Assembly (NCBI GenBank): GCA_018509705.1
Contig: GCA_018509705.1_3630.1
DNA length: 64,000 bases
DNA from: a phage
Reading direction: 5' to 3' (one strand)
Position numbers and translations under genes: made by a program. The notes below the pieces were generated by a model. It had not been told where the DNA came from. It did not search any database and saw only the letters and a list, made by a program, of their open reading frames with translations. Numbering within the stretch: the stretch's first letter is position 1; every line of letters starts with the position of its first letter. Below are positions 30,279 to 62,631 of this stretch, one piece after another.

Positions 30279-30378
30279 AAGCTTTACCCCTCAAAACAGT
30301 ATAACAAAATAGCCCTCGTCAGAGGGCTAGTATCTCCAATTACTTTATTGTACCACATCTAATTAAGATTGGCAACAC

Positions 30379-31467
30379 TTAGATAAAACGCTTGAACATA
30401 GAAGGTGATGAGATTGATGGAATCACACAAGGAAGTGCTACCTCCTCTTTCTCCAGGAAATTAATCGCAGAAGCTACGCAGTCGGCCCAGTCGTCTTTTC
30501 TGTTAAATGTTGATCTTTCCCCGTTGAATTTTTCAAGTTCAGTCAGAAATGCTTCCAGAGTATCAGGATGGAAACTGGATTTTACAATCCTCACCATTCC
30601 TTGTTGGGCAAGATTGGCAAAAGGTGAGAACCTTGTCAGTTTAGACTTGTTGGAAGGCATTGGGTCTTCTTCAACCCTGAACCCTTCGGCAAGCAAGGAT
30701 CTGGAGGAGGTTAAGAACTCACTCTTACCTGCCTGCCCTGGGTCCACAGAGAAGACGATTATGCAATCATCACCATCGAACTGCGCCTGTTTCCTGATGA
30801 TCACATCTCGTTCACCAGCCTTTTTACAGAACTTGCCTTCCAGACCTGTGGAATACCTCCCGTCATCCACGTTCTCAGGACAATAATCACCGGACAGGTA
30901 ATAAAAGCCGTCGCTATCTTTACTTACCTTAATACTGGCAGTAAAGTCAGGAAATTTATTACCGGAAGTTCTCTCGGTTCCTGCCTTATCCCATGCCCTG
31001 CAAGATACTGACCCAAGAGGTACTCTATCGGCATCACGAAGGAAAGATCTTTGAAAATAGTTTGCACCCTCAGGCTTTGCAAACCAGTTACCATGGAGAA
31101 GCTGAGCTTTTTCCAGCTCTGGTAGACCTTCGAGGAAAGCAAGGTATTCTGGGTTGTCTCTCAAACAGACAGGATTATCGAATATTGTTGCGCCTATGAA
31201 CGAGAATGACAACGGTCTTGGCTTGATCTCTACGCCAAGTCCGTTAACCGTGGTGTATTTCTCTATCAACTCTTCTTTAGAGTCTCCCCAGATAAATTCA
31301 CCGTCGCGTCGGATAAAATATCTTTTCTTACCGCATTTCTCCGGATCTGGATACCCTTCATCGTCCAACCACCATCTAACCAGTTTGGCAAGCATGTGTT
31401 CTGAATCGGGGTTACAGCTGATAACCATTCTTGATGGATACTTTGACGGAGATCGCAGACGAGACAT
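30379..31467 (-). CDS. terminase large subunit, C-terminal segment (putative exon 2; true 5' boundary unknown)
   Basis: 362-aa ORF that continues the ATPase/nuclease protein begun in 32381-32809; the track start is probably not the real exon boundary. Confidence 0.55.
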   Translation of the reverse strand: MSRLRSPSKYPSRMVISCNPDSEHMLAKLVRWWLDDEGYPDPEKCGKKRYFIRRDGEFIWGDSKEELIEKYTTVNGLGVEIKPRPLSFSFIGATIFDNPVCLRDNPEYLAFLEGLPELEKAQLLHGNWFAKPEGANYFQRSFLRDADRVPLGSVSCRAWDKAGTERTSGNKFPDFTASIKVSKDSDGFYYLSGDYCPENVDDGRYSTGLEGKFCKKAGERDVIIRKQAQFDGDDCIIVFSVDPGQAGKSEFLTSSRSLLAEGFRVEEDPMPSNKSKLTRFSPFANLAQQGMVRIVKSSFHPDTLEAFLTELEKFNGERSTFNRKDDWADCVASAINFLEKEEVALPCVIPSISSPSMFKRFI

Positions 31468-32380
31468 CAGATAGTCTATCTGCTCCCATTCGAACTGTGT
31501 CGTTTATGTTCGGGCAAGGTCGCTAGTCTTGCCCCGCCATTTTCAGGCAGCTGCATGTCTCCATGCAGACCAGACTATATCTTATGAATGTGCAAATACT
31601 CTGCCGCTCTAAGAATAGTTTCCTCATCCTCTTGGAAGAAACCTAAAGCTCTGTTGCATTTATCACAAAGCAACCCTCTTACAGCACCAGTTTTATGGTC
31701 ATGATCAACACAAAAGAAATCTCTGTACCCTTGCGTCCTATACTCATCAAGAGATATTCTACAAATGGCACACTTATGATCTTGATCTGAGAGTAGACGA
31801 TAGTATTCATCTTTTGTTATGTGAAATTTCTTCTCAATCTGATAAAACTTTTCACACATCTTACACCTGTTCGTAACCAGATATACTTTACCATAGTCAC
31901 GTTTTGTGTAAAAACTATCAGCGAGCATACTTTCATGACAAGATTTGCATTCAAAAAGTTCACCTTTCTTCAGCAAGTCTTGAATAAATAATGCTGCGTC
32001 ATCTCTCTTAACCATATTTTTGTTTCTACGAGATCCACCCTTCCTGTAGTACATATAGCATTCCTTGCATGTACCTGAGTATCCATCCTTGCTCTTAGAT
32101 GATAAAAAGAAATCATCAATAGGTAGAACTCTTTGGCAATCCATACATTTTTTAGTATTACACATTCACCCTCCCGTTTCGAATCGCTTGATTCTACGTC
32201 TTTCGACTAGTCGTTGAACGTTCATCCTCTCGGATGCTTCGCTGCGGATTATCTAAATTAACACACTGTTACCATACCTTCGATCTCTCTTCGAAGCCTC
32301 TATCATGTTACCATGACAGGTTGGTGGTGTCAATAATAAAGATTTCCCCGCAATTAGGGAGGTTTTACGAGAGCTACAAA
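31468..32380 (-). mobile_element. intervening sequence in the terminase large subunit gene (putative self-splicing intron) carrying an HNH endonuclease ORF
   Basis: Lies between the in-frame stop of the ATPase segment and the C-terminal segment; contains the 31575-32165 ORF; flanks are GC-richer and stem-forming; intron class not determined. Confidence 0.45.
31575..32165 (-). CDS. HNH / endonuclease VII-like homing endonuclease
   Basis: Cys-rich N-terminus and FFCVDHDHKTGAVRGLLCDKCN motif, as in T4 gp49-type HNH nucleases. Confidence 0.65.
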   Translation of the reverse strand: MCNTKKCMDCQRVLPIDDFFLSSKSKDGYSGTCKECYMYYRKGGSRRNKNMVKRDDAALFIQDLLKKGELFECKSCHESMLADSFYTKRDYGKVYLVTNRCKMCEKFYQIEKKFHITKDEYYRLLSDQDHKCAICRISLDEYRTQGYRDFFCVDHDHKTGAVRGLLCDKCNRALGFFQEDEETILRAAEYLHIHKI

Positions 32381-32809
32381 TTAACCCTCATCGAAGCAAA
32401 CCATGGTGTACTCAAGCCCTTGATGGTTAAGCTTATCTTGTACATACTCCATGTGACAGTATTTTACAACAGCTCCCTTTTTGCTTCTATCCCACTTGCC
32501 AGTGTTCGGATCAAACCGTGGAAAAATGAACTTATGATCCTTCTCTCTGAACTTTGGCTTAATGTTTTCAGGCAGATCACTGTAAATAGCTACTGCTTTA
32601 GGCCATAGTCCACCCTCACCTTCCAACTGTGGGGTTGTTCTTCGGAACATAACCACAGAGCTGTGGGGGTCATCAATAATTTTAAGTGGCATCAACTGCA
32701 AGAGGAACGACTTGCCAGACCCTGCGGCACCGCCGATTACCAAAATATCTGCATCGTTTTCTAGGATCATCTTCTGCTTTTCAGAACACGGTCCGTAAAT
32801 CTTAGACAT
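32381..32809 (-). CDS. terminase large subunit, N-terminal ATPase segment (putative exon 1)
   Basis: Walker A ILVIGGAAGSGKSFLL and Walker B-like MVCFDEG immediately before the stop. Confidence 0.7.
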   Translation of the reverse strand: MSKIYGPCSEKQKMILENDADILVIGGAAGSGKSFLLQLMPLKIIDDPHSSVVMFRRTTPQLEGEGGLWPKAVAIYSDLPENIKPKFREKDHKFIFPRFDPNTGKWDRSKKGAVVKYCHMEYVQDKLNHQGLEYTMVCFDEG

Positions 32810-33096
32810 TAACCTCTCTCCTTTGGAAACAGTGTTCTAATATAGTCTTGCAAAATGATCAATTTAGCTCTATCATTGCTACAAGACAGATTATTATCCC
32901 TCATAATGCCAGAATTCACTGCATCTGGCGCACCTTTCTTCAAAGGCATAGCTTTAGCAGGTGGTTTCATGGCACCTTCCGGGGGTTTAACAATCAACCT
33001 TCCTACATCCGGAGGGTCAATCTTGTATTCTCTCTCAACGCTGGTTGCACACCCACATAATAACAAGCACACAATAAACAGTGTAGCAACTCTCAT
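32809..33096 (-). CDS. o-spanin-like outer-membrane lipoprotein (Rz1-like)
   Basis: Signal peptide with Cys-containing lipobox-like LLLCGCATS, Pro-rich body (KPPEGAMKPPAKAMP); 4-nt overlap with the upstream i-spanin-like gene. Confidence 0.5.
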   Translation of the reverse strand: MRVATLFIVCLLLCGCATSVEREYKIDPPDVGRLIVKPPEGAMKPPAKAMPLKKGAPDAVNSGIMRDNNLSCSNDRAKLIILQDYIRTLFPKERG

Positions 33097-33912: not shown

Positions 33913-33989
33913 TGGTCTCCACGGAGTGATTCGAACACTCGACCTCCTGATCCCAAATCAGGCGCTCTACCAAGCTGAGCTACGCGGAG
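33913..33989 (-). tRNA. tRNA-Pro (anticodon UGG)
   Basis: Hand-folded cloverleaf: acceptor CTCCGCG, D-loop TAGCTCAG, anticodon loop TTTGGGA, T-loop GGTTCGAATC, encoded CCA. Confidence 0.8.
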
Positions 33990-34000
33990 TATTTATTATT

Positions 34001-34075
34001 TGGTGGCCCTGGGTGGAATTGAACCACCGTCTGGCGATTATGAGTCGCTTGCTTGAACCTTCCAGCTACAGGGCC
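34001..34075 (-). tRNA. tRNA with CAU anticodon (Met, or Ile2 lysidine-type)
   Basis: Acceptor GGCCCTG/CAGGGCC, anticodon arm GCGA-CTCATAA-TCGC, T-loop TTCAATT, encoded CCA. Confidence 0.75.
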
Positions 34076-34076
34076 A

Positions 34077-34152
34077 TGGTGCTGATGGCAGGACTTGAAC
34101 CTGCAACCTATTGATTACAAATCAATTGCACTACCAATTGTGCTACATCAGC
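34077..34152 (-). tRNA. tRNA-Thr (anticodon UGU)
   Basis: Acceptor GCTGATG/CATCAGC, D-stem GCAC/GTGC, anticodon arm ATTGA-TTTGTAA-TCAAT, T-arm GCAGG-TTCAAGT-CCTGC, CCA. Confidence 0.8.
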
Positions 34153-34157
34153 AAAAA

Positions 34158-34256
34158 GGTGCTAGGTGATGGAATCGAACCACCTATGTATTCAACGACT
34201 ACCTCGTCTATTTTCAGGATTAAAAATCCTCGCCCTTGCCAAAGGGCTTACCTAGC
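34158..34256 (-). tRNA. atypical tRNA-like gene (about 99 nt; isotype unresolved)
   Basis: Good acceptor (GCTAGGT/ACCTAGC) and T-arm (GGTGG-TTCGATT-CCATC), but about 24 extra nt between D and T arms; anticodon arm ambiguous (AGGAT-TTTTA-ATCCT or 4-bp stem with UUU). Confidence 0.3.
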
Positions 34257-34354
34257 TCAGTATGTTGACCATGTTGCTAGTCGGCGATGACGACTGTAAC
34301 ATTTGATAATCCGGTTCTGCTTCCGGCTTTCGCTTAATTACAAGGTCAACAATA

Positions 34355-34445
34355 TGGCTGAGGGTAATGGAATCGAACCATCATCAAGTCATCCTCAACG
34401 GGACGGTTTTCAAGACCGCTTGAGCACCATTGCTCCCTACCCTCA
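34355..34445 (-). tRNA. tRNA-Ser (anticodon UGA), long variable arm
   Basis: Acceptor TGAGGGT/ACCCTCA, anticodon arm GCGGT-CTTGAAA-ACCGT, long variable arm, T-loop TTCGATT, CCA. Confidence 0.7.
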
Positions 34446-34559
34446 TTTATAAACAATACTGATAATGACACTGATTTTCGAGCAGTTAGTGACTAGTATA
34501 AACGACGATAAATATCAATGCCATTATCTGTATGATTTATGCATTTAAAACTATAAATT

Positions 34560-34646
34560 TGGTGGGGAGTGGTGGAGTCGAACCACCCGAGTCGCAATGA
34601 CAATAGATTTACAGTCTACACCGCTACCCCTACGGGATAACTCCCC
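34560..34646 (-). tRNA. tRNA-Tyr (anticodon GUA), long variable arm
   Basis: Acceptor GGGGAGT/ACTCCCC, anticodon arm GTAGA-CTGTAAA-TCTAT, T-arm GGTGG-TTCGACT-CCACC, CCA. Confidence 0.7.
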
Positions 34647-34650
34647 AATT

Positions 34651-34725
34651 TGGCACCCCGTACTGGACTCGAACCAGTGTCAACGGCTTAGAAGGCCGCT
34701 GCTTTATCCACTAAGCTAACAGGGC
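34651..34725 (-). tRNA. tRNA-Arg (anticodon UCU)
   Basis: Acceptor GCCCTGT (two G-U pairs), D-stem GCTT/AAGC, anticodon arm GCGGC-CTTCTAA-GCCGT, T-arm ACTGG-TTCGAGT-CCAGT, CCA. Confidence 0.75.
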
Positions 34726-57986: not shown

Positions 57987-58265
57987 ATGAGCTGTGAAAA
58001 ATCTTTTTTCTTTATTATTTACGGTAAAGATAACTGCCCACATTGTGTCAGAGCAAAAGAATTTGCAATCAGCAAAGGTCTGCCTTTTGTATATAAGACA
58101 CTTGGCGAGGGATACACAAAAGAAGAGCTTATTGAGAAGTGTAGCCCAATCGTGCCCAGAACGTTGCCGCAGATCTTCTTAGAAAGCAATCTTGAAAGTG
58201 TCCATATAGGCGGTGCCGACGATTTCATCTCTTTTGTTAAGAATGGTTTTGGAGAGAAAAAGTGA
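57987..58265 (+). CDS. glutaredoxin/thioredoxin-like redoxin (NrdC/NrdH-like)
   Basis: CPHC active site in FIIYGKDNCPHCVRAKEF; located between nrdB and nrdD. Confidence 0.65.
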   Translation: MSCEKSFFFIIYGKDNCPHCVRAKEFAISKGLPFVYKTLGEGYTKEELIEKCSPIVPRTLPQIFLESNLESVHIGGADDFISFVKNGFGEKK

Positions 58266-59125
58266 AAGTTGTAAAACGGGACGGTAGAGAAGAGTTCTAT
58301 AACGGAATTAAGGTGATCAAGGCGGCAGAGTCCGCCTTACTTGAGTCTGGACATACTGAAGAAGAAGCTTACCGGATCGCCTGCGCGGTTAATGAAGTTG
58401 TTGCTAACAATCTACCAACCGACCAGTGCACGATCTCTGTAAAAAATATCCATATCCTTGTTGAAGACGCTCTTATGGATATGGGTTTAAAATGTGCAGC
58501 CAGAGAATACATCCAGTATAGGCAGACAAGAGATAATAACAGAGAGGCAGGTGGAAAACTGCTTGCAGATATTAGTGGCTTCTTGGATCGCACTTGTGAT
58601 GAATTTACAAAAGAAAACGCAAATAAGCCTACCAATCATGTACACACTCATCGTGACCTGCTTGCAGGCATTCTTAGCAAACACCTTGCATCAACACAGA
58701 TCCTGCCAGACCGTGTCTCTGAAGAGCACAATAAAGGCTTCATCCATGTGCATGATCTTGACTACTTGATCAGTCCGTTAACAAACTGTTGTTTGGTAAA
58801 TTATCCAGATATGCTGGAAAACGGATTCAACATTGGTAACGCTCATGTCAGTAAGCCGAAGTCAATAGGGGTTGCAACAACAATCCTTAGCCAAATCTCT
58901 AGTGCGGTAGCTAGTGCTCAATATGGTGGTCAGACTATGAGCCATATTGATCATTATCTGGCACAGTATGCTGAAGCAACCTATGAGAAGAACCTTAAAT
59001 TTTGCCAGGAACATTGGTTGCCAGATGCTGAGACTGTTGCAATGCAAATGACAGATAAAGACGTATTTGACAGCATGCAGACTTTGCTCTATCAAATCAA
59101 TACGTTAACTTCTGTCAACGGTTAA
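58262..59125 (+). CDS. nrdD: anaerobic ribonucleotide reductase, N-terminal segment (putative exon 1)
   Basis: ATP-cone-like KVVKRDGREEFYNGIKV; ORF ends at a stop entering a structured non-coding stretch; true 3' boundary unknown. Confidence 0.7.
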   Translation: MKVVKRDGREEFYNGIKVIKAAESALLESGHTEEEAYRIACAVNEVVANNLPTDQCTISVKNIHILVEDALMDMGLKCAAREYIQYRQTRDNNREAGGKLLADISGFLDRTCDEFTKENANKPTNHVHTHRDLLAGILSKHLASTQILPDRVSEEHNKGFIHVHDLDYLISPLTNCCLVNYPDMLENGFNIGNAHVSKPKSIGVATTILSQISSAVASAQYGGQTMSHIDHYLAQYAEATYEKNLKFCQEHWLPDAETVAMQMTDKDVFDSMQTLLYQINTLTSVNG

Positions 59126-59433
59126 CAAACTGGCCGTTTTAAAACTCTGCTAACCTCAGTATGAGGGGTCAGCTGATCGCTGGCTAACGGGGAACGCTAA
59201 GGCGAAAGCTATGCCAATCCCGTGACTAGCTTCACAAGGAGTGAGGCGGTTGTAACGACTAACCTTTTGGTGTAGGGATTATGGAAGATTCCGAAACGCA
59301 GAGGTCTGATTAAGAATCACACGGTGTGATTTCAGGCAAGAGATAGTCTGGCCTTGTGGAAACATAAGGGTGGGGACCGCAAACCCCTTTTATCACATTA
59401 AGTTTAGGTCTGGACACCTCAGTATTTGGTAGA
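59126..59433 (+). mobile_element. intervening sequence 1 in nrdD (putative self-splicing intron, no ORF)
   Basis: About 300 nt without an ORF, locally GC-richer with many complementary segments, between two nrdD-like segments. Confidence 0.45.
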
Positions 59434-59688
59434 ATGATTACCAAAAACTACTTGAAAGTCCACAAAATGGGTCTTGGTGAAGAACGTATCACACCTGTGT
59501 TCCCTAAAGTGCTGTTCTTCCTAGAAGAGGGTGTCAACATGAACCCTGGAGATCCTAACTATGATTTGAAACGATTAGCTTTGGAATGCTCTGCAGAGCG
59601 GATTTATCCTGACTTTGTTTCTGTTCCACTAAATCGTAAAGTGACAGGATCGACAGATGGCAAAGTAACGAGCATGGGTAAACTATAA
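59434..59688 (+). CDS. nrdD: anaerobic ribonucleotide reductase, middle segment (putative exon 2; boundaries approximate)
   Basis: 84-aa ORF between the two intervening sequences; assignment by context. Confidence 0.45.
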   Translation: MITKNYLKVHKMGLGEERITPVFPKVLFFLEEGVNMNPGDPNYDLKRLALECSAERIYPDFVSVPLNRKVTGSTDGKVTSMGKL

Positions 59689-60411
59689 CTGCTCATGTAA
59701 AATCTATCTAAACGGGGAAACTCCAGAACGGACAATCCCGTGCTAAACGTAACAGAACTCCTGACCAAGAGGAGTCCTGAAATGAGAAAACAAATTCGTG
59801 ATTTTGAAGGTTATGAAATTGACGAGATGGGCAATGTTTATTGCACCCGCTACGAAAATGAAAGAATTATTCATTCGTGGGAAGAGATAAACACAGGTTA
59901 CCGTCTTGTTAGGATACGCAAGAACAAAAAGACTGTTTGCCTAAGGGTTCACAGACTTGTTGCTGAATCGTTCTTACCAAATCCAGACAATTTACCCTAT
60001 GTTAAGCACAAAGGGGACAACAGGAAAGATAACAGTGTATACAACCTTGAGTGGGGAGCTTGCCCAGACAATACGCAAGAAGGATACAACAACAACTGTT
60101 ATGCTTTTTACACAAAATGCCACGGTGTGAAAGCCACCAACAAATTAACTGGTGAGGTTTTCCACTTTAAAAGTCTGAGATGTTGTGCTGATGTTTTAGG
60201 AGTGGATAGAAAAAGAATATCTGCTATCCTGAAACGTGGTGCGCCTAATAACTATGATTACGAGTTCTGTTACGAAATGCCTAACGACTAACCGTGATGA
60301 ATGTAGCGGTGTAGGGTGTAAGCCGATGACACTCGAAATGGTAGACACACTAAGTGTGAAGATATAGTCTGATCTGCATGGGAACATGCAGCAGCACGTA
60401 AAGGTGCGGGG
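59689..60411 (+). mobile_element. intervening sequence 2 in nrdD (putative intron) carrying an HNH endonuclease ORF
   Basis: Contains ORF 59740-60291 plus a structured 3' tail; the nrdD frame resumes downstream. Confidence 0.45.
59740..60291 (+). CDS. intron-encoded HNH homing endonuclease
   Basis: HNH_3-like core CLRVHRLVAESFLPNP...NLEWGAC. Confidence 0.55.
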   Translation: MLNVTELLTKRSPEMRKQIRDFEGYEIDEMGNVYCTRYENERIIHSWEEINTGYRLVRIRKNKKTVCLRVHRLVAESFLPNPDNLPYVKHKGDNRKDNSVYNLEWGACPDNTQEGYNNNCYAFYTKCHGVKATNKLTGEVFHFKSLRCCADVLGVDRKRISAILKRGAPNNYDYEFCYEMPND

Positions 60412-61404
60412 GTGGACTTGCGAACCACCCTGAACATAATGTGTAGAAGTTTCTTATCGAAATATAGCGACCCTGTAACAGGCGAGGAGAAATACCTTGG
60501 CAGATTTAACTTAGGCGTTGTTAGCCTTAACCTGCCAATGATTGCGGCAAAAGCTAAAACGGAAGGTGTTGATTTCTTTGCAGTTCTTGACGAATACCTG
60601 GATCTTGCATACGAGGCTCACCTTGTAAGGGTTAACCGTCTAAAAGGAACAAAGGCAGGGCAGAACCCTATCATGTGGTGTGAAGGCGCTCTTGCTCGCC
60701 TGGATCCTGAAGAGAGTATTGATAAACTCTTCTATGACGGGTACGCTTCCATCAGTATTGGGTATATTGGTGTGTATGAAACCTGTCAGATTTTGGGCAG
60801 GGAGGGTGACAAGGCTTTAGCTCTTGGAATACTACAGCACATGAGAGATGCTTGTGAGCGATACAAGAAGGAAAGTAGACTAGCGTTTAGCTTGTACGGC
60901 ACTCCTTCTGAGAGTCTATGCTATAAAGCTGCAACCTGTCTGGATCGTGAATATCCTGAAGTGTTGAAGCACGAGCATGAATATCTCACCAACAGTTTCC
61001 ATCAGCCAGTATGGATCAATAGCTCTCCTTTTGATAAGTGGGAGTATGAAGAAGGTTTTGCTATGATATCCTCTGGTGGCAACATCGGATACGTAGAGAC
61101 ACCAAATCTGAAAAACAACTTAGATGCTTTGGAAGCTCTTGTTGATTTCGGATATAAACACATTATGTATTTTGGTATCAACCAGCCTGTGGATAAATGT
61201 CTTAAGTGTGGTTTCTCTGGTGAGTTCAGTGCAACAGCTAAAGGGTTCTGCTGCCCTGCGTGCGGATGCCACGATGAACAATATATCTCAGTGATCCGAA
61301 GAGTGTCTGGATACCTTTCCAGTCCTAACTCCCGTCCTTACAATAAAGGTAAGCAAGCGGAAGTTATAGAACGGGTTAAGCACTACGGAAGTTGTGGTTG
61401 CTGA
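60412..61404 (+). CDS. nrdD: anaerobic ribonucleotide reductase, C-terminal segment (putative exon 3; track start is not the true boundary)
   Basis: CRSFL and GRFNLGVVSLNLPMIA, C-terminal Cys cluster CLKCG...CPACGC and glycyl-radical-like RRVSGYLS. Confidence 0.7.
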   Translation: MDLRTTLNIMCRSFLSKYSDPVTGEEKYLGRFNLGVVSLNLPMIAAKAKTEGVDFFAVLDEYLDLAYEAHLVRVNRLKGTKAGQNPIMWCEGALARLDPEESIDKLFYDGYASISIGYIGVYETCQILGREGDKALALGILQHMRDACERYKKESRLAFSLYGTPSESLCYKAATCLDREYPEVLKHEHEYLTNSFHQPVWINSSPFDKWEYEEGFAMISSGGNIGYVETPNLKNNLDALEALVDFGYKHIMYFGINQPVDKCLKCGFSGEFSATAKGFCCPACGCHDEQYISVIRRVSGYLSSPNSRPYNKGKQAEVIERVKHYGSCGC

Positions 61405-61470: not shown

Positions 61471-62631
61471 GTGAGAAAACTTACAACCGAAGATTTTATA
61501 GAGGGGGCGAAAGCAGTTCATGGTGATAAATATGATTATTCCAAAGTCAAATATGTGGGTGCACACACCAAGATTGTAATTATATGCCCTGAGCATGGAG
61601 AATTTAAGAAAACTCTTGGAGATCACCTCCGTAAAAAACAGGGTTGCCCAAAATGTCAGATTGAAGCAGAAAGAGCGGCTTCTGCTGAAAAATTTAAAGC
61701 GGAGGCCGAGGCTAAGTATAATTATAAATATGATTACTCTAAGGTAGAGTATGTAAATGCTAAAACTAAAGTTGTGATTGTTTGTCCTGTTCACGGCGAG
61801 TTTGAGCAAAAGCCTGATAACCATCTCCGCGAGGGGGGTTGCCGTAAGTGTGGAGGAACTGAGAGAAAGACTACTGAAGAGTGGATCGCTGAGGCAAAAG
61901 CGCTTCATGGCGATAAGTATGATTACTCTCTTGTAAATTATAAAACCGGTAATGATAAAGTGGAGATAATCTGTAATACATGTGGTGCTCACTTCCCACA
62001 AAGACCTCATGACCATGCACCAAGTGGAAAAGGTTGCCCCGAGTGCGGGAAGAAGAAGGTGGCCGAGGTTAGTAGGAAGACGCAGAGAAAGAAAGCATCT
62101 GAGGTAGCTAAAAGGTTTGAGGCAAGAGCCAGAGCTATCCATAAAGATAAATACGATTATTCCAGGGTGGAATATGTTAATAGGGAGACAGAGGTCACTA
62201 TCATCTGTCCGATTCACGGGGAGTTCACACAAAAACCGTTTGTCCACATCAACCAAAAAGCTGGCTGTCAAAAATGTGCTAAAGTCGGCTTCTTATCTCA
62301 TGAACATGGTAGCCTTTATATCATGGTTGACGATCTGGAAGTACCAACTATGATGAAAATTGGTGTGAGTGTCCGGGTAGATGAACGAAGAAAAGATGTG
62401 TTAAAAAGAGCTAAAAAAGCTGGTGCTAGATTCTCTGATCTACATGTTATAAAAACTTGGGAAGGAACAACAGACGACATGCAAACTTTAGAAAAAGCTA
62501 TGCACCAAGCCTTGAGCCAATACAAAATCAACTTCACAGAGAAGTTTGATGGCTGTCGAGAGTTCTTCTACTACAGACCGGAGGTGTTCAGCATAGTGGA
62601 AGCAGCGTATAAAGAGATCTGCGGTAAATGA
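61471..62631 (+). CDS. repeat protein: four tandem Cys/His zinc-ribbon-like repeats plus C-terminal GIY-YIG-like (T5orf172-type) domain; putative free-standing homing endonuclease
   Basis: Four repeats of about 45 aa (GDKYDYS.V.Y...V.I.CP.HGEF...P..H...GC.KC), visible at DNA level; C-terminal SLYIMVDD...MMKIGVS...RRKDVLKR. Confidence 0.4.
   Translation: MRKLTTEDFIEGAKAVHGDKYDYSKVKYVGAHTKIVIICPEHGEFKKTLGDHLRKKQGCPKCQIEAERAASAEKFKAEAEAKYNYKYDYSKVEYVNAKTKVVIVCPVHGEFEQKPDNHLREGGCRKCGGTERKTTEEWIAEAKALHGDKYDYSLVNYKTGNDKVEIICNTCGAHFPQRPHDHAPSGKGCPECGKKKVAEVSRKTQRKKASEVAKRFEARARAIHKDKYDYSRVEYVNRETEVTIICPIHGEFTQKPFVHINQKAGCQKCAKVGFLSHEHGSLYIMVDDLEVPTMMKIGVSVRVDERRKDVLKRAKKAGARFSDLHVIKTWEGTTDDMQTLEKAMHQALSQYKINFTEKFDGCREFFYYRPEVFSIVEAAYKEICGK

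Follow-up and report, generated by a model that had tools for sequence, protein, structure and literature searches.

How is a complete large terminase subunit made from a gene whose reading frame breaks off one codon past the Walker B Asp-Glu? This question is raised by the terL locus in a 64,000-nt stretch of DNA (hereafter the window; contig GCA_018509705.1_3630.1 of GenBank assembly GCA_018509705.1) from a Vequintavirus, i.e. an rV5-like coliphage. On the minus strand, an ORF for 142 amino acids (32809..32381) encodes the Walker A motif GGAAGSGKS and terminates in ...MVCFDEG, that is, the Walker B motif MVCFDE followed by a single glycine and a stop codon. A second ORF of 362 codons (31467..30379) follows on the same strand. 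A preliminary description, made from the sequence alone, had correctly noted the strand and the Walker A motif, and interpreted the locus as a terminase gene interrupted by a self-splicing intron with an endonuclease gene, with a genuinely split terminase as the alternative. Our analysis sides with the former reading: very probably, the intervening sequence is a group I intron that carries an endonuclease gene inside a single terL and is predicted to be removed by splicing.

Introns of this kind are already known, as endonuclease-bearing terL introns have been described and annotated in rV5-like phages. The terminase introns of rV5 itself were published in 2013 under the section heading 'Introns in terminase' (Kropinski et al. 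2013, Virol J 10:76; PMC3606486), and the corresponding record (NC_011041, 'ORF64ABC') annotates the terminase as a three-piece join. The first report of a group I intron interrupting the large terminase gene of a phage concerns an unrelated siphovirus (PMC3606486).

Phages ime and JeffSchatz have an uninterrupted terL with flanks 97.9–99.7% identical to those in the window, and the extent of the insert was deduced from their alleles. The alignment runs to position 32385 and restarts at 31500, with one mismatched junction base, equivalent to 32384. The empty-allele records span 1718 nt, corresponding to 2601 minus 883, and exactly 883 nt are absent from the sister phages. These boundaries refine the earlier coordinates. 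The upstream ORF does stop at 32381, where the ATPase segment had been taken to end, but the last coding base is 32384; the intron opens with the TAA at 32383..32381, which places an in-frame stop after exon 1. The 362-aa ORF that had been assigned the remainder of the protein is likewise present; exon 2, however, starts at 31500 and not at the ATG at 31467. Its first codons (ACA CAG TTC, for TQF) lie 33 nt upstream of that ATG and open a stretch of 11 codons, TQFEWEQIDYL, which forms part of the protein in the uninterrupted alleles and is conserved in phage phiTE. Consistent with the original measurement, the gap between the two ORFs (31468..32380) comprises 913 bp, whereas the true insert (32383..31501) is 883 nt long (Table 1).

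Table 1. Features of the interrupted terL locus, listed in the direction of transcription. Positions refer to the 64,000-nt window.
Feature	Position	Strand	Basis
terL exon 1, codons 1–142	32384..32809	−	ORF list; junction from alignment to uninterrupted ime and JeffSchatz alleles
Group I intron, 883 nt	31501..32383	−	Empty alleles, RF00028, folding
P1: exon/intron GAGGGU|UA (32389..32382) and internal guide UAGCUCUC (32376..32369)	32369..32389	−	Rfam alignment
P3, 5′ strand CCUCCC	32357..32362	−	Rfam alignment, pairing
P4-P5-P5a-P5b (GUAA loop)-P5c domain, closed by P4 UGCGGG/UCCGCA	32243..32352	−	Unconstrained MFE folding
P6a hairpin CAUCC-GAGA-GGAUG	32223..32236	−	Folding, pairing model
P7, 5′ strand GACUA	32208..32212	−	Matches Rfam consensus ..AGACUA..
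P7.1 (GUC-GAAA-GAC) and P7.2 (GAAUC-AAGC-GAUUC), between P7 and P3′	32181..32207	−	Insertion relative to Rfam consensus; folding
P3, 3′ strand GGGAGG	32170..32175	−	Sequence, pairing
P8, 5′ strand GAAUGUGUAA	32158..32167	−	Folding
HNH endonuclease, Endonuclease_7 (T4 gp49-like) type, 196 aa, in P8 loop	31575..32165	−	Pfam, PHROG, PDB matches
P8, 3′ strand UUGCACAUUC, closing the 584-nt ORF segment	31586..31595	−	Long-range pairing from MFE folding
P7, 3′ strand UAGUC	31573..31577	−	Sequence, Rfam alignment
P9 (CUGCAUG-GAGA-CAUGCAG), P9.1, P9.2 (GGGCAAG/CUUGCCC)	31512..31568	−	Rfam alignment, folding
terL exon 2, codons 143–515 and stop	30379..31500	−	Alignment to uninterrupted alleles; Pfam
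Hairpin resembling an intrinsic terminator, downstream of terL	30310..30329	−	Homologous rV5 site annotated as Rho-independent terminator

Conceptual removal of the 883 nt restores a terminase of 515 residues, 514–515 of which match the uninterrupted proteins of the sister phages. On this joined product, the Pfam domain Terminase_6N extends in one stretch from residue 25 to 294, across the junction between residues 142 and 143 (E = 2.3e-19), followed by Terminase_6C at residues 394–489 (E = 5e-6). A continuous ATPase domain together with a C-terminal RNaseH-like nuclease domain is found in the spliced product only, and the alignment of the joined protein proposed in the preliminary description hence came out in favor of an intron. 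With exactly 883 nt missing from sister phages and Terminase_6N reaching across the junction, the terL intron is not a chance pattern. A search of PDB sequences with the spliced terminase returned no match at E ≤ 0.01, leaving no solved structure on which to locate Walker B.

Covariance models, the other check suggested at the outset, likewise identified the insert as a group I intron. The Rfam model RF00028 (group I) aligned over its full length (model positions 1–253) to positions 32393..31551 of the minus strand, with 47.3 bits and E = 1.3e-10; 2.7 bits short of the gathering score of 50 bits. A scan at the curated Rfam threshold returned tRNAs only, and the intron surfaced at an E-value threshold. 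ORF-less homologues of 319 nt from rV5 and slur16 scored 84.9 and 84.3 bits, respectively, and the empty allele did not match RF00028. Group II models failed to match anywhere in the region, even at E ≤ 10.

All helices of the conserved group I core (the P3–P8 and P4–P6 domains, with P7 crossing P3) could be placed and paired. In P1, 8/8 pairs form in 9/9 sequences, including a wobble pair between U32384 and G32374 at the 5′ splice site. The intron begins with UAA and ends in ...AUAAACG, its terminal G (omega-G) residing at 31501, directly before exon 2; the empty alleles fix this boundary independently. The guanosine-binding site of group I introns is held by the P7 helix, whose GACUA and UAGUC strands pair in 9/9 sequences without any variation, and the conserved J8/7-P7 segment (AAGAUAUAGUCU) is an exact match to the model consensus. 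Unconstrained MFE folding recovered nearly all helices (z = −5.6 and −8.5, the latter for the 883-nt intron).

An explicit structure model with 89 pairs in 15 helices was 99.9% paired across nine variants as compared to 34–41% with slid partners, a contrast that is inflated by the model being derived from the same sequences. Among the nine close relatives, six pairs differ on both sides. They are located in P5a (U-A to C-G and A-U to G-C), P5b (C-G to U-A), and P8, where the ORF-less intron has a different sequence that nevertheless pairs; three P8 pairs are changed on both sides, as a single block replacement. The core helices P3, P4, P6a, P7, and P9 are invariant among these relatives, their support consisting of the covariance-model match and folding, with no covariation. 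On architectural grounds, P7.1/P7.2 and the P9.1/P9.2 extension (31550..31512) would presumably place the intron in an IA2-like subgroup.

The sub-threshold RF00028 score might be taken as a sign of decay, in which case the intron would be a splicing-defective relic and the phage would either rely on another route (e.g. trans-acting factors) or possess a non-functional terL. To this may be added that splicing of this particular intron is something that we infer. Yet the missing bits are accounted for by the 584-nt ORF segment inserted in the P8 loop: outside of P8, the window intron is ~97–99% identical to the ORF-less copies of rV5 and slur16, which score around 85 bits. Besides, none of the 89 pairs of the model is disrupted in the window copy, and exactly this arrangement recurs in at least 30 plaque-forming phages, deposited independently of one another, although the gene is essential and present in a single copy. 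A relic is therefore hardly credible, and an intact group I intron remains the preferred reading.

In a genuinely split terminase, a free-standing HNH endonuclease gene would divide terL, and the two halves would be translated separately and assemble post-translationally. Many records are annotated in this spirit, those of JES2013, APECc02, ECP26, and slur16 among them, with two terminase CDSs plus an endonuclease. Precedents also exist, as NrdA of Aeromonas phage Aeh1 is split by mobE, and one HNH-containing insertion in phage CB7 was found not to be spliced (both in PMC7344957). Moreover, an ATG is available at 31467 in the downstream part. Starting there, however, the second polypeptide would lose the 11 residues immediately following Walker B, conserved as they are in phiTE; its true beginning lacks a start codon, and the sole Shine-Dalgarno-like sequence (GGGAG) sits ~15 nt upstream of the ATG. 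Nor would a free-standing endonuclease gene explain why the ORF-less 319-nt form also interrupts terL in rV5 and slur16, or why the insert constitutes a full-length group I ribozyme complete with the U·G pair of P1, a terminal G, and compensatory changes. Taken together, this makes a split gene very unlikely.

Inteins and the proteins of group II introns may likewise contain HNH endonuclease domains, which could speak for either element being inserted here. The sequence already refutes both. Reading through the insert as an intein is barred by in-frame stops at 32383..32381 and at 31506..31504, the latter just upstream of exon 2. A group II intron is contradicted by the missing model match and by the encoded protein, in which Pfam detected an Endonuclease_7 domain only and no reverse-transcriptase domain. 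The probability that we assign to either element is accordingly close to nil, leaving the group I intron with its endonuclease gene.

The protein encoded in the P8 loop proved to be the Cys-rich, gp49-like HNH protein recognized beforehand. It combines N-terminal Cys-rich repeats with the motif CVDHDH...VRGLLCDKCN and matches Pfam Endonuclease_7 (PF02945) over residues 110–192 (E = 2.1e-21; 76 bits at a cut-off of 23.6). PHROG matches were to endonuclease VII families, and sequence matches in the PDB to Hpy99I (E = 1e-5) and T4 endonuclease VII (E = 6e-4), with CVDHDH...GLLCDKCN aligning to both enzymes. In 30/30 occupied records the ORF is intact, with 98.4–100% amino acid identity, and always resides inside this terL intron; its next relative is only 41% identical. 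To our knowledge, no HNH enzyme of the Endonuclease_7 type has been biochemically characterised as an intron homing endonuclease.

The signals of the endonuclease gene overlap with ribozyme helices. GGGAGG, the 3′ strand of P3, is located 4 nt upstream of the AUG and may double as a Shine-Dalgarno sequence. The start codon (32165..32163) falls within the 5′ strand of P8, and the 3′ strand of P7 opens with the stop codon UAG. Conceivably, a given RNA molecule might either fold into the ribozyme or serve for translation of the endonuclease, but not both, although we offer this as a tentative idea. A sigma-70-like site inside the intron (32333..32305; 10/12 consensus matches) could drive the endonuclease gene, but it is a consensus match only. 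The region contains 10 such sites against 5.9 expected, and this internal site was given no weight.

In the proposed mechanism, terL and its intron would be transcribed as a single pre-mRNA, within which the 883 nt would fold into an IA2-like group I ribozyme comprising P1–P9 together with P7.1/P7.2 and P9.1/P9.2. An external guanosine would then attack after U32384, the base engaged in the U·G pair of P1, and the freed end of exon 1 would in turn attack after the terminal G at 31501. Ligation of ...GAU GAG GGU to ACA CAG UUC... would yield the mRNA for the 515-aa terminase. The 196-aa product, a putative homing endonuclease, may cut the intron-less terL of co-infecting relatives, with a predicted cut near ...GATGAGGGC|ACGCAG... 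at the empty site. Repair off the intron-bearing genome would finally copy the intron into the cut allele.

Three allele classes coexist among phages more than 95% identical to each other, namely the intron with ORF, the ORF-less intron, and the empty site. At exon position −1, U was present in 11/11 occupied alleles sampled and C in 4/4 empty alleles examined. The U in occupied alleles can be explained by the U·G pair of P1, which requires this base. A link of the +3 base to intron presence (GGT|ACA in occupied vs. GGC|ACG in empty alleles) was also considered and rejected, because ECP26 and Aya are occupied and have ACG. Judging from these alleles, of the two synonymous differences flanking the junction, only that at −1 appears to track intron presence. 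We regard it as possible, if rather doubtful, that the −1 base also helps the endonuclease to separate target from self, beyond what the P1 pair demands. Within the phage collection, the best match of any empty allele to the spliced junction was 98.1%. Scanning IMG/VR with a junction string that combines intron-type flanks with an empty site gave 0 matches; a pattern with 15 specified bases hit 40 loci, only two of which were rV5-like, the rest being chance matches. Two IMG/VR contigs contained the occupied site.

Closest to the window are the BASEL phages WalterGehring, MaxBurger, DrSchubert, and HeinrichReichert (MZ501111 and others; Maffei et al. 2021, PMC8594841). They possess the same 883-nt intron at the same site, with 97.8–99.0% DNA identity across the region and 98.5–99.5% amino acid identity of the endonuclease, amounting to no substantive difference. 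Their records (e.g. that of WalterGehring) annotate the 'terminase large subunit' as a CDS joined from two pieces, together with a 'putative homing endonuclease'. The first intron of rV5 interrupts the same gene at the same site (DEG|TQF) and has the same ribozyme as the window intron (97–99% identity outside of P8), but is ORF-less, 319 nt in length, and equipped with another P8 hairpin. Unlike the window, where the site near 31182–31187 is empty, rV5 has a second terminase intron at about I248|F249, with a different HNH gene (ORF 65); its boundaries, from tblastn, are approximate, and the provisional 3′ end is not a G.

More distant counterparts occur in the genus Certrevirus, which belongs to the same subfamily, Vequintavirinae. 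In CB7 and phiTE, a group I-type insert with an HNH gene is again found in the terminase gene, near Walker B. For the CB7 intron, splicing was demonstrated by RT-PCR (Buttimer et al. 2020, PMC7344957), the only published RT-PCR experiment that we found. The phiTE insert, scoring 35 bits against RF00028, differs from the window intron in its position (VD|EGTQF, 6 nt upstream), in an HNH gene that resembles ORF 65 of rV5, and in its RNA, which shares only ~35 nt of the J8/7-P7 core with that of the window (80% identity). These differences in site, HNH gene, and RNA point to independent invasion. In view of the other site and HNH gene, the splicing seen in CB7 backs that of the window intron only indirectly.

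In general architecture, the window intron is reminiscent of the T4 introns in td, nrdB, and nrdD (sunY) with their endonucleases I-TevI, I-TevII, and I-TevIII. Those introns too have P7.1/P7.2-type extensions, loop out the endonuclease ORF from a peripheral helix, self-splice, let the ends of the ORF run into the core, and are present or absent among close relatives. They differ in their host genes, and the td and sunY endonucleases are GIY-YIG enzymes, as opposed to an Endonuclease_7-type HNH enzyme encoded in P8.

Practically, the value of the exact boundaries (32384|32383 and 31501|31500) lies in annotation, for they permit a correct joined terL CDS. Many deposited rV5-like genomes, JES2013, APECc02, ECP26, and HdK5 among them, still present two 'terminase' fragments alongside a product called 'recombination endonuclease VII' or 'hypothetical protein', with labels sometimes shifted. 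The locus also adds one further case, not new in kind, of homing elements that target essential phage genes at their most conserved codons. Across the rV5 relatives and more distant phages, at least four intron sites can be told apart in the terminase gene: VD|E, DEG|T, I248|F249, and a break near residue 275.

Elsewhere in the window, an nrdD-like gene harbors two more group I introns. We also considered whether the window's three introns, the second terminase intron of rV5, and the intron of phiTE had recently been copied from a single RNA, and rejected this; they share only the J8/7-P7-P9 segment, with 78–86% identity over 35–137 nt.

The preliminary description's terminase gene interrupted by an HNH-type ORF was confirmed by the ORF list and the sequence, which place three ORFs on the minus strand (Table), with the 913-bp gap between the terminase ORFs correctly computed. 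Positions 30300-32900 share 99.7% identity with Escherichia phage rV5_ev146 and 97.4-99.3% with ~25 further Vequintavirus (rV5-like) records. Comparison of the terminase locus with the phage collection revealed three allele classes: ~30 records span the entire query, a second class spans ~2037 bp (~564 bp short of the query) and a third 1718 bp, i.e. 2601 minus 883. In direct comparison with ime and JeffSchatz, two phages of the third class, the alignment runs to 32385 and restarts at 31500, with one mismatched base at the junction, corresponding to 32384. As the alignments break and resume there, the intervening sequence is 32383..31501 (883 nt).

Joining 32809..32384 to 31500..30379 yielded a 515-aa ORF matching the uninterrupted ime and JeffSchatz terminases at 514-515 positions. 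The join alignment proposed earlier also left Pfam domain Terminase_6N unbroken, in a single stretch (residues 25-294) over the junction between residues 142 and 143, with Terminase_6C at residues 394-489. The spliced join reads ...MVCFDEG followed by TQFEWEQIDYLMSRLRS..., the break falling one codon past the Walker B Asp-Glu. The second terminase piece, previously placed at 30379-31467, stands as an ORF but not in its start, as exon 2 begins 33 nt upstream of that ATG. TQFEWEQIDYL, the 11 residues upstream of the ATG at 31467, is conserved in the phiTE terminase (58% identical) and would be missing from a C-terminal fragment translated separately from this codon. A terminase truly split in the manner of Aeh1 nrdA-mobE is contradicted by this true beginning of exon 2, which has no start codon, by the ribozyme within the insert and by the existence of the insert in an ORF-less form. 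In-frame stops at each end of the insert exclude an intein; the intron starts with UAA, a stop for the exon-1 reading frame.

At the curated threshold, Rfam reported only tRNAs and no intron. With an E-value threshold, the covariance scan proposed earlier matched the group I intron model RF00028, along its full length (positions 1-253), to 32393..31551 (47.3 bits, E=1.3e-10), the endonuclease ORF forming a long P8-loop insertion. This near miss is explained by the second allele class, which clears the cut-off of 50 bits: the slur16 and rV5 copies of this intron comprise 319 nt, with a short hairpin in place of the P8-ORF segment, and score 84.3 and 84.9 bits, respectively. RF00028 gave no score on the empty allele. 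A group II intron is excluded, as the Rfam scan matched no group II family and a reverse-transcriptase domain is absent from the ORF. Judged by this covariance match, the inserted RNA is a group I intron, and the original intron interpretation is upheld with refined boundaries.

Table. Features of the terminase and nrdD regions and predicted helices of the terminase intron (helix anatomy from the Rfam alignment plus an explicit pair model).
Feature	Location or sequence	Strand	Remarks
Exon-1 ORF	32809..32381	-	142 aa, has GGAAGSGKS, ends ...MVCFDEG then stop
Endonuclease ORF	32165..31575	-	196 aa, Cys-rich, has CVDHDH...VRGLLCDKCN
Downstream terminase ORF	31467..30379	-	362 aa
P1	GAGGGU, splice site, UA; with UAGCUCUC	-	wobble U32384·G32374 at 5' splice site
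P2	absent		
P3	CCUCCC/GGGAGG	-	
P4	UGCGGG/UCCGCA	-	
Extended P5 domain	P5, P5a, P5b with GUAA cap, P5c	-	
P6a	GAGA cap	-	
P7	GACUA/UAGUC	-	
P7.1, P7.2 hairpins	between P7 and P3'	-	
P8	GAAUGUGUAA/UUGCACAUUC	-	surrounds endonuclease ORF
P9	GAGA cap, then P9.1 and P9.2	-	
Intron 3' end	...GAACAUAAACG, terminal G at 31501	-	
tRNA cluster	33916-34725	-	five tRNAs above Rfam threshold
nrdD intron A	59123..59379	+	257 nt, ORF-less in window, RF00028 29.2 bits
nrdD intron B	59680..60441	+	762 nt, terminal G at 60441
nrdD intron B HNH ORF	59740..60291	+	183 aa
Endonuclease-like ORF	61471-62631	+	386 aa, directly downstream of nrdD-like gene

Nearly all helices, the long-range closure of P8 among them, were recovered by unconstrained minimum free energy (MFE) folding of the 319-nt form (z-score -5.6) and the 883-nt form (z-score -8.5); P7 is invisible to this approach because it crosses P3. 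Guide-region UGU could additionally form a 3-bp P10 with the ACA opening exon 2. The combination of P7.1/P7.2 with P9.1/P9.2 is suggestive of the IA2-type layout of phage introns.

Nine intron variants were aligned, with ORF-bearing copies trimmed in register. The 89-pair model, built on the same nine sequences, was 99.9% paired across them vs. 34-41% with partners slid by 1-3 columns. Six pairs were altered on both sides: two in P5a of HMD-6 (U-A to C-G and A-U to G-C), one in P5b of rV5, APECc02 and one IMG/VR contig (C-G to U-A, with U·G intermediates in two more variants), and three in P8 between ORF-bearing and ORF-less forms, the latter stemming from a single block replacement. The relatives compared are at least 95% identical, and catalytic-core helices are invariant among them. 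A decayed, non-splicing intron is unlikely given that all modelled pairs are intact in the window. Many isolates are viable although the insert interrupts the single copy of an essential gene, which is a strong argument for splicing. The gene is most likely transcribed as a single pre-mRNA, from which guanosine-initiated two-step transesterification would remove the 883 nt and ligate the exons for translation of the 515-aa terminase.

The middle ORF, rightly called endonuclease VII-type at the outset, matched Pfam Endonuclease_7 (PF02945, E=2.1e-21) and aligns with the solved structures of Hpy99I and T4 endonuclease VII. It is intact in 30 records (98.4-100% aa identity), in every case inside the terminase intron; the nearest other full-length relative, from Listeria phage LPML1, shares 41% identity. 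Its Shine-Dalgarno-like GGGAGG is the P3 3' strand, its AUG lies within the P8 5' strand and its stop UAG forms the first three bases of the P7 3' strand. This overlap of three expression signals with ribozyme helices suggests that ribozyme folding may compete with endonuclease translation, as is well known from studies of T4 td and I-TevI. A sigma-70-like consensus match (32333-32305, minus strand; TTGACA, 17-nt spacer, TAACAT, TG-extended, 10/12) falls inside the P5a/P5b region, with the endonuclease start ~140 nt further downstream; 10 such sites were observed in the region vs. 5.9 expected.

The last exon-1 codon was GGT in 11/11 occupied alleles examined and GGC in 4/4 empty ones, the U at the exon-1 end being the base required for the P1 wobble pair. 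No empty allele in the phage collection exceeded a 98.1% match to the spliced junction. A link between the +3 base (ACA vs. ACG) and intron presence was rejected, as ECP26 and Aya have the intron with ACG. The presence/absence polymorphism points to homing, in which the endonuclease would cleave empty alleles in co-infected cells and the intron would be copied into them on repair.

This intron is already known and correctly annotated in some public records; our analysis should mainly be of use for fixing the many that still give two terminase fragments. In the reference record of rV5, the terminase is a three-piece join ('ORF64ABC'), and the 2013 rV5 genome paper devotes a section to 'Introns in terminase' and acknowledges David Shub, who helped to locate the intron (PMC3606486). 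In rV5, the ORF-less form is combined with a second intron at ~I248/F249, whose HNH gene is a different one. In the window, the first intron is ORF-bearing and the second site is empty (~31182-31187, minus strand). The extra insertion at this position (~980 bp) recurs in HdK5 and phiWec193, which have both introns, and in several 'Campylobacter phage' records. In WalterGehring (BASEL), which has the same intron and ORF, the terminase is annotated as a join of two pieces and the ORF as a 'putative homing endonuclease'; the WalterGehring paper mentions comparative annotation as its means of defining intron boundaries (PMC8594841), and the LL12 announcement reports introns in terminase and DNA polymerase genes (PMC6658697). 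For Certrevirus phage CB7, terminase intron splicing was evidenced by RT-PCR, and Table 3 of that paper gives the intron as common to phiTE (PMC7344957). The insert in phiTE (sequence L007, 582-1550) sits at VD/EGTQF, 6 nt upstream of where the window is interrupted, and its HNH gene is a different one; in Shewanella phage 1/4 (sequence L008, ~1000-2040) an HNH-carrying insert breaks the terminase near residue 275. Both gave group I matches at 35-37 bits, and the introns compared have only the J8/7-P7-P9 segment in common. The terminase introns are one structural family that independently invaded nearby conserved codons, and the gene is a repeated target of HNH-carrying group I-like elements.

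Several records, among them APECc02 (KR698074), ECP26 (MK883717) and ime (MN850576), have displaced or incorrect product names near the terminase gene: exon 1, for instance, appears as 'putative recombinase endonuclease', the endonuclease ORF as 'terminase large subunit' or the o-spanin as 'putative large terminase subunit'. Some 18-25 'Campylobacter phage' records (MG0656xx, host given as C. jejuni) share 96-98% identity with this E. coli Vequintavirus in the terminase and nrdD regions; their naming or host assignment looks doubtful.

Elsewhere in the window, an nrdD-like gene (class III anaerobic ribonucleotide reductase; 58262-61404, plus strand) comprises three exons separated by a further two introns of group I. 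In intron A, the 5' splice site is GGT/TAA and the last base a G (59379); the RF00028 match to intron B covers its 3' part (35.3 bits). DrSchubert is devoid of both, and its uninterrupted 636-aa gene fixes their junctions, whereas MaxBurger harbors an endonuclease gene within intron A, with the join annotated. Coverage of the nrdD stretch reaches 80% or more in only 18 records. The endonuclease-like ORF downstream contains repeated '...HGDKYDYSKV.YV....V.I.CP.HGEF...' modules and, from its matches to PHROG endonuclease families (phrog_681, E=4e-80; phrog_559 'HNH endonuclease', E=8e-53), probably encodes a free-standing homing endonuclease. On the minus strand, the tRNA cluster precedes the i-spanin/o-spanin/terminase block by ~1 kb; two weaker matches within it, to the tRNA-Sec model (34360-34444 and 34564-34646), probably represent tRNAs whose variable arms are long.
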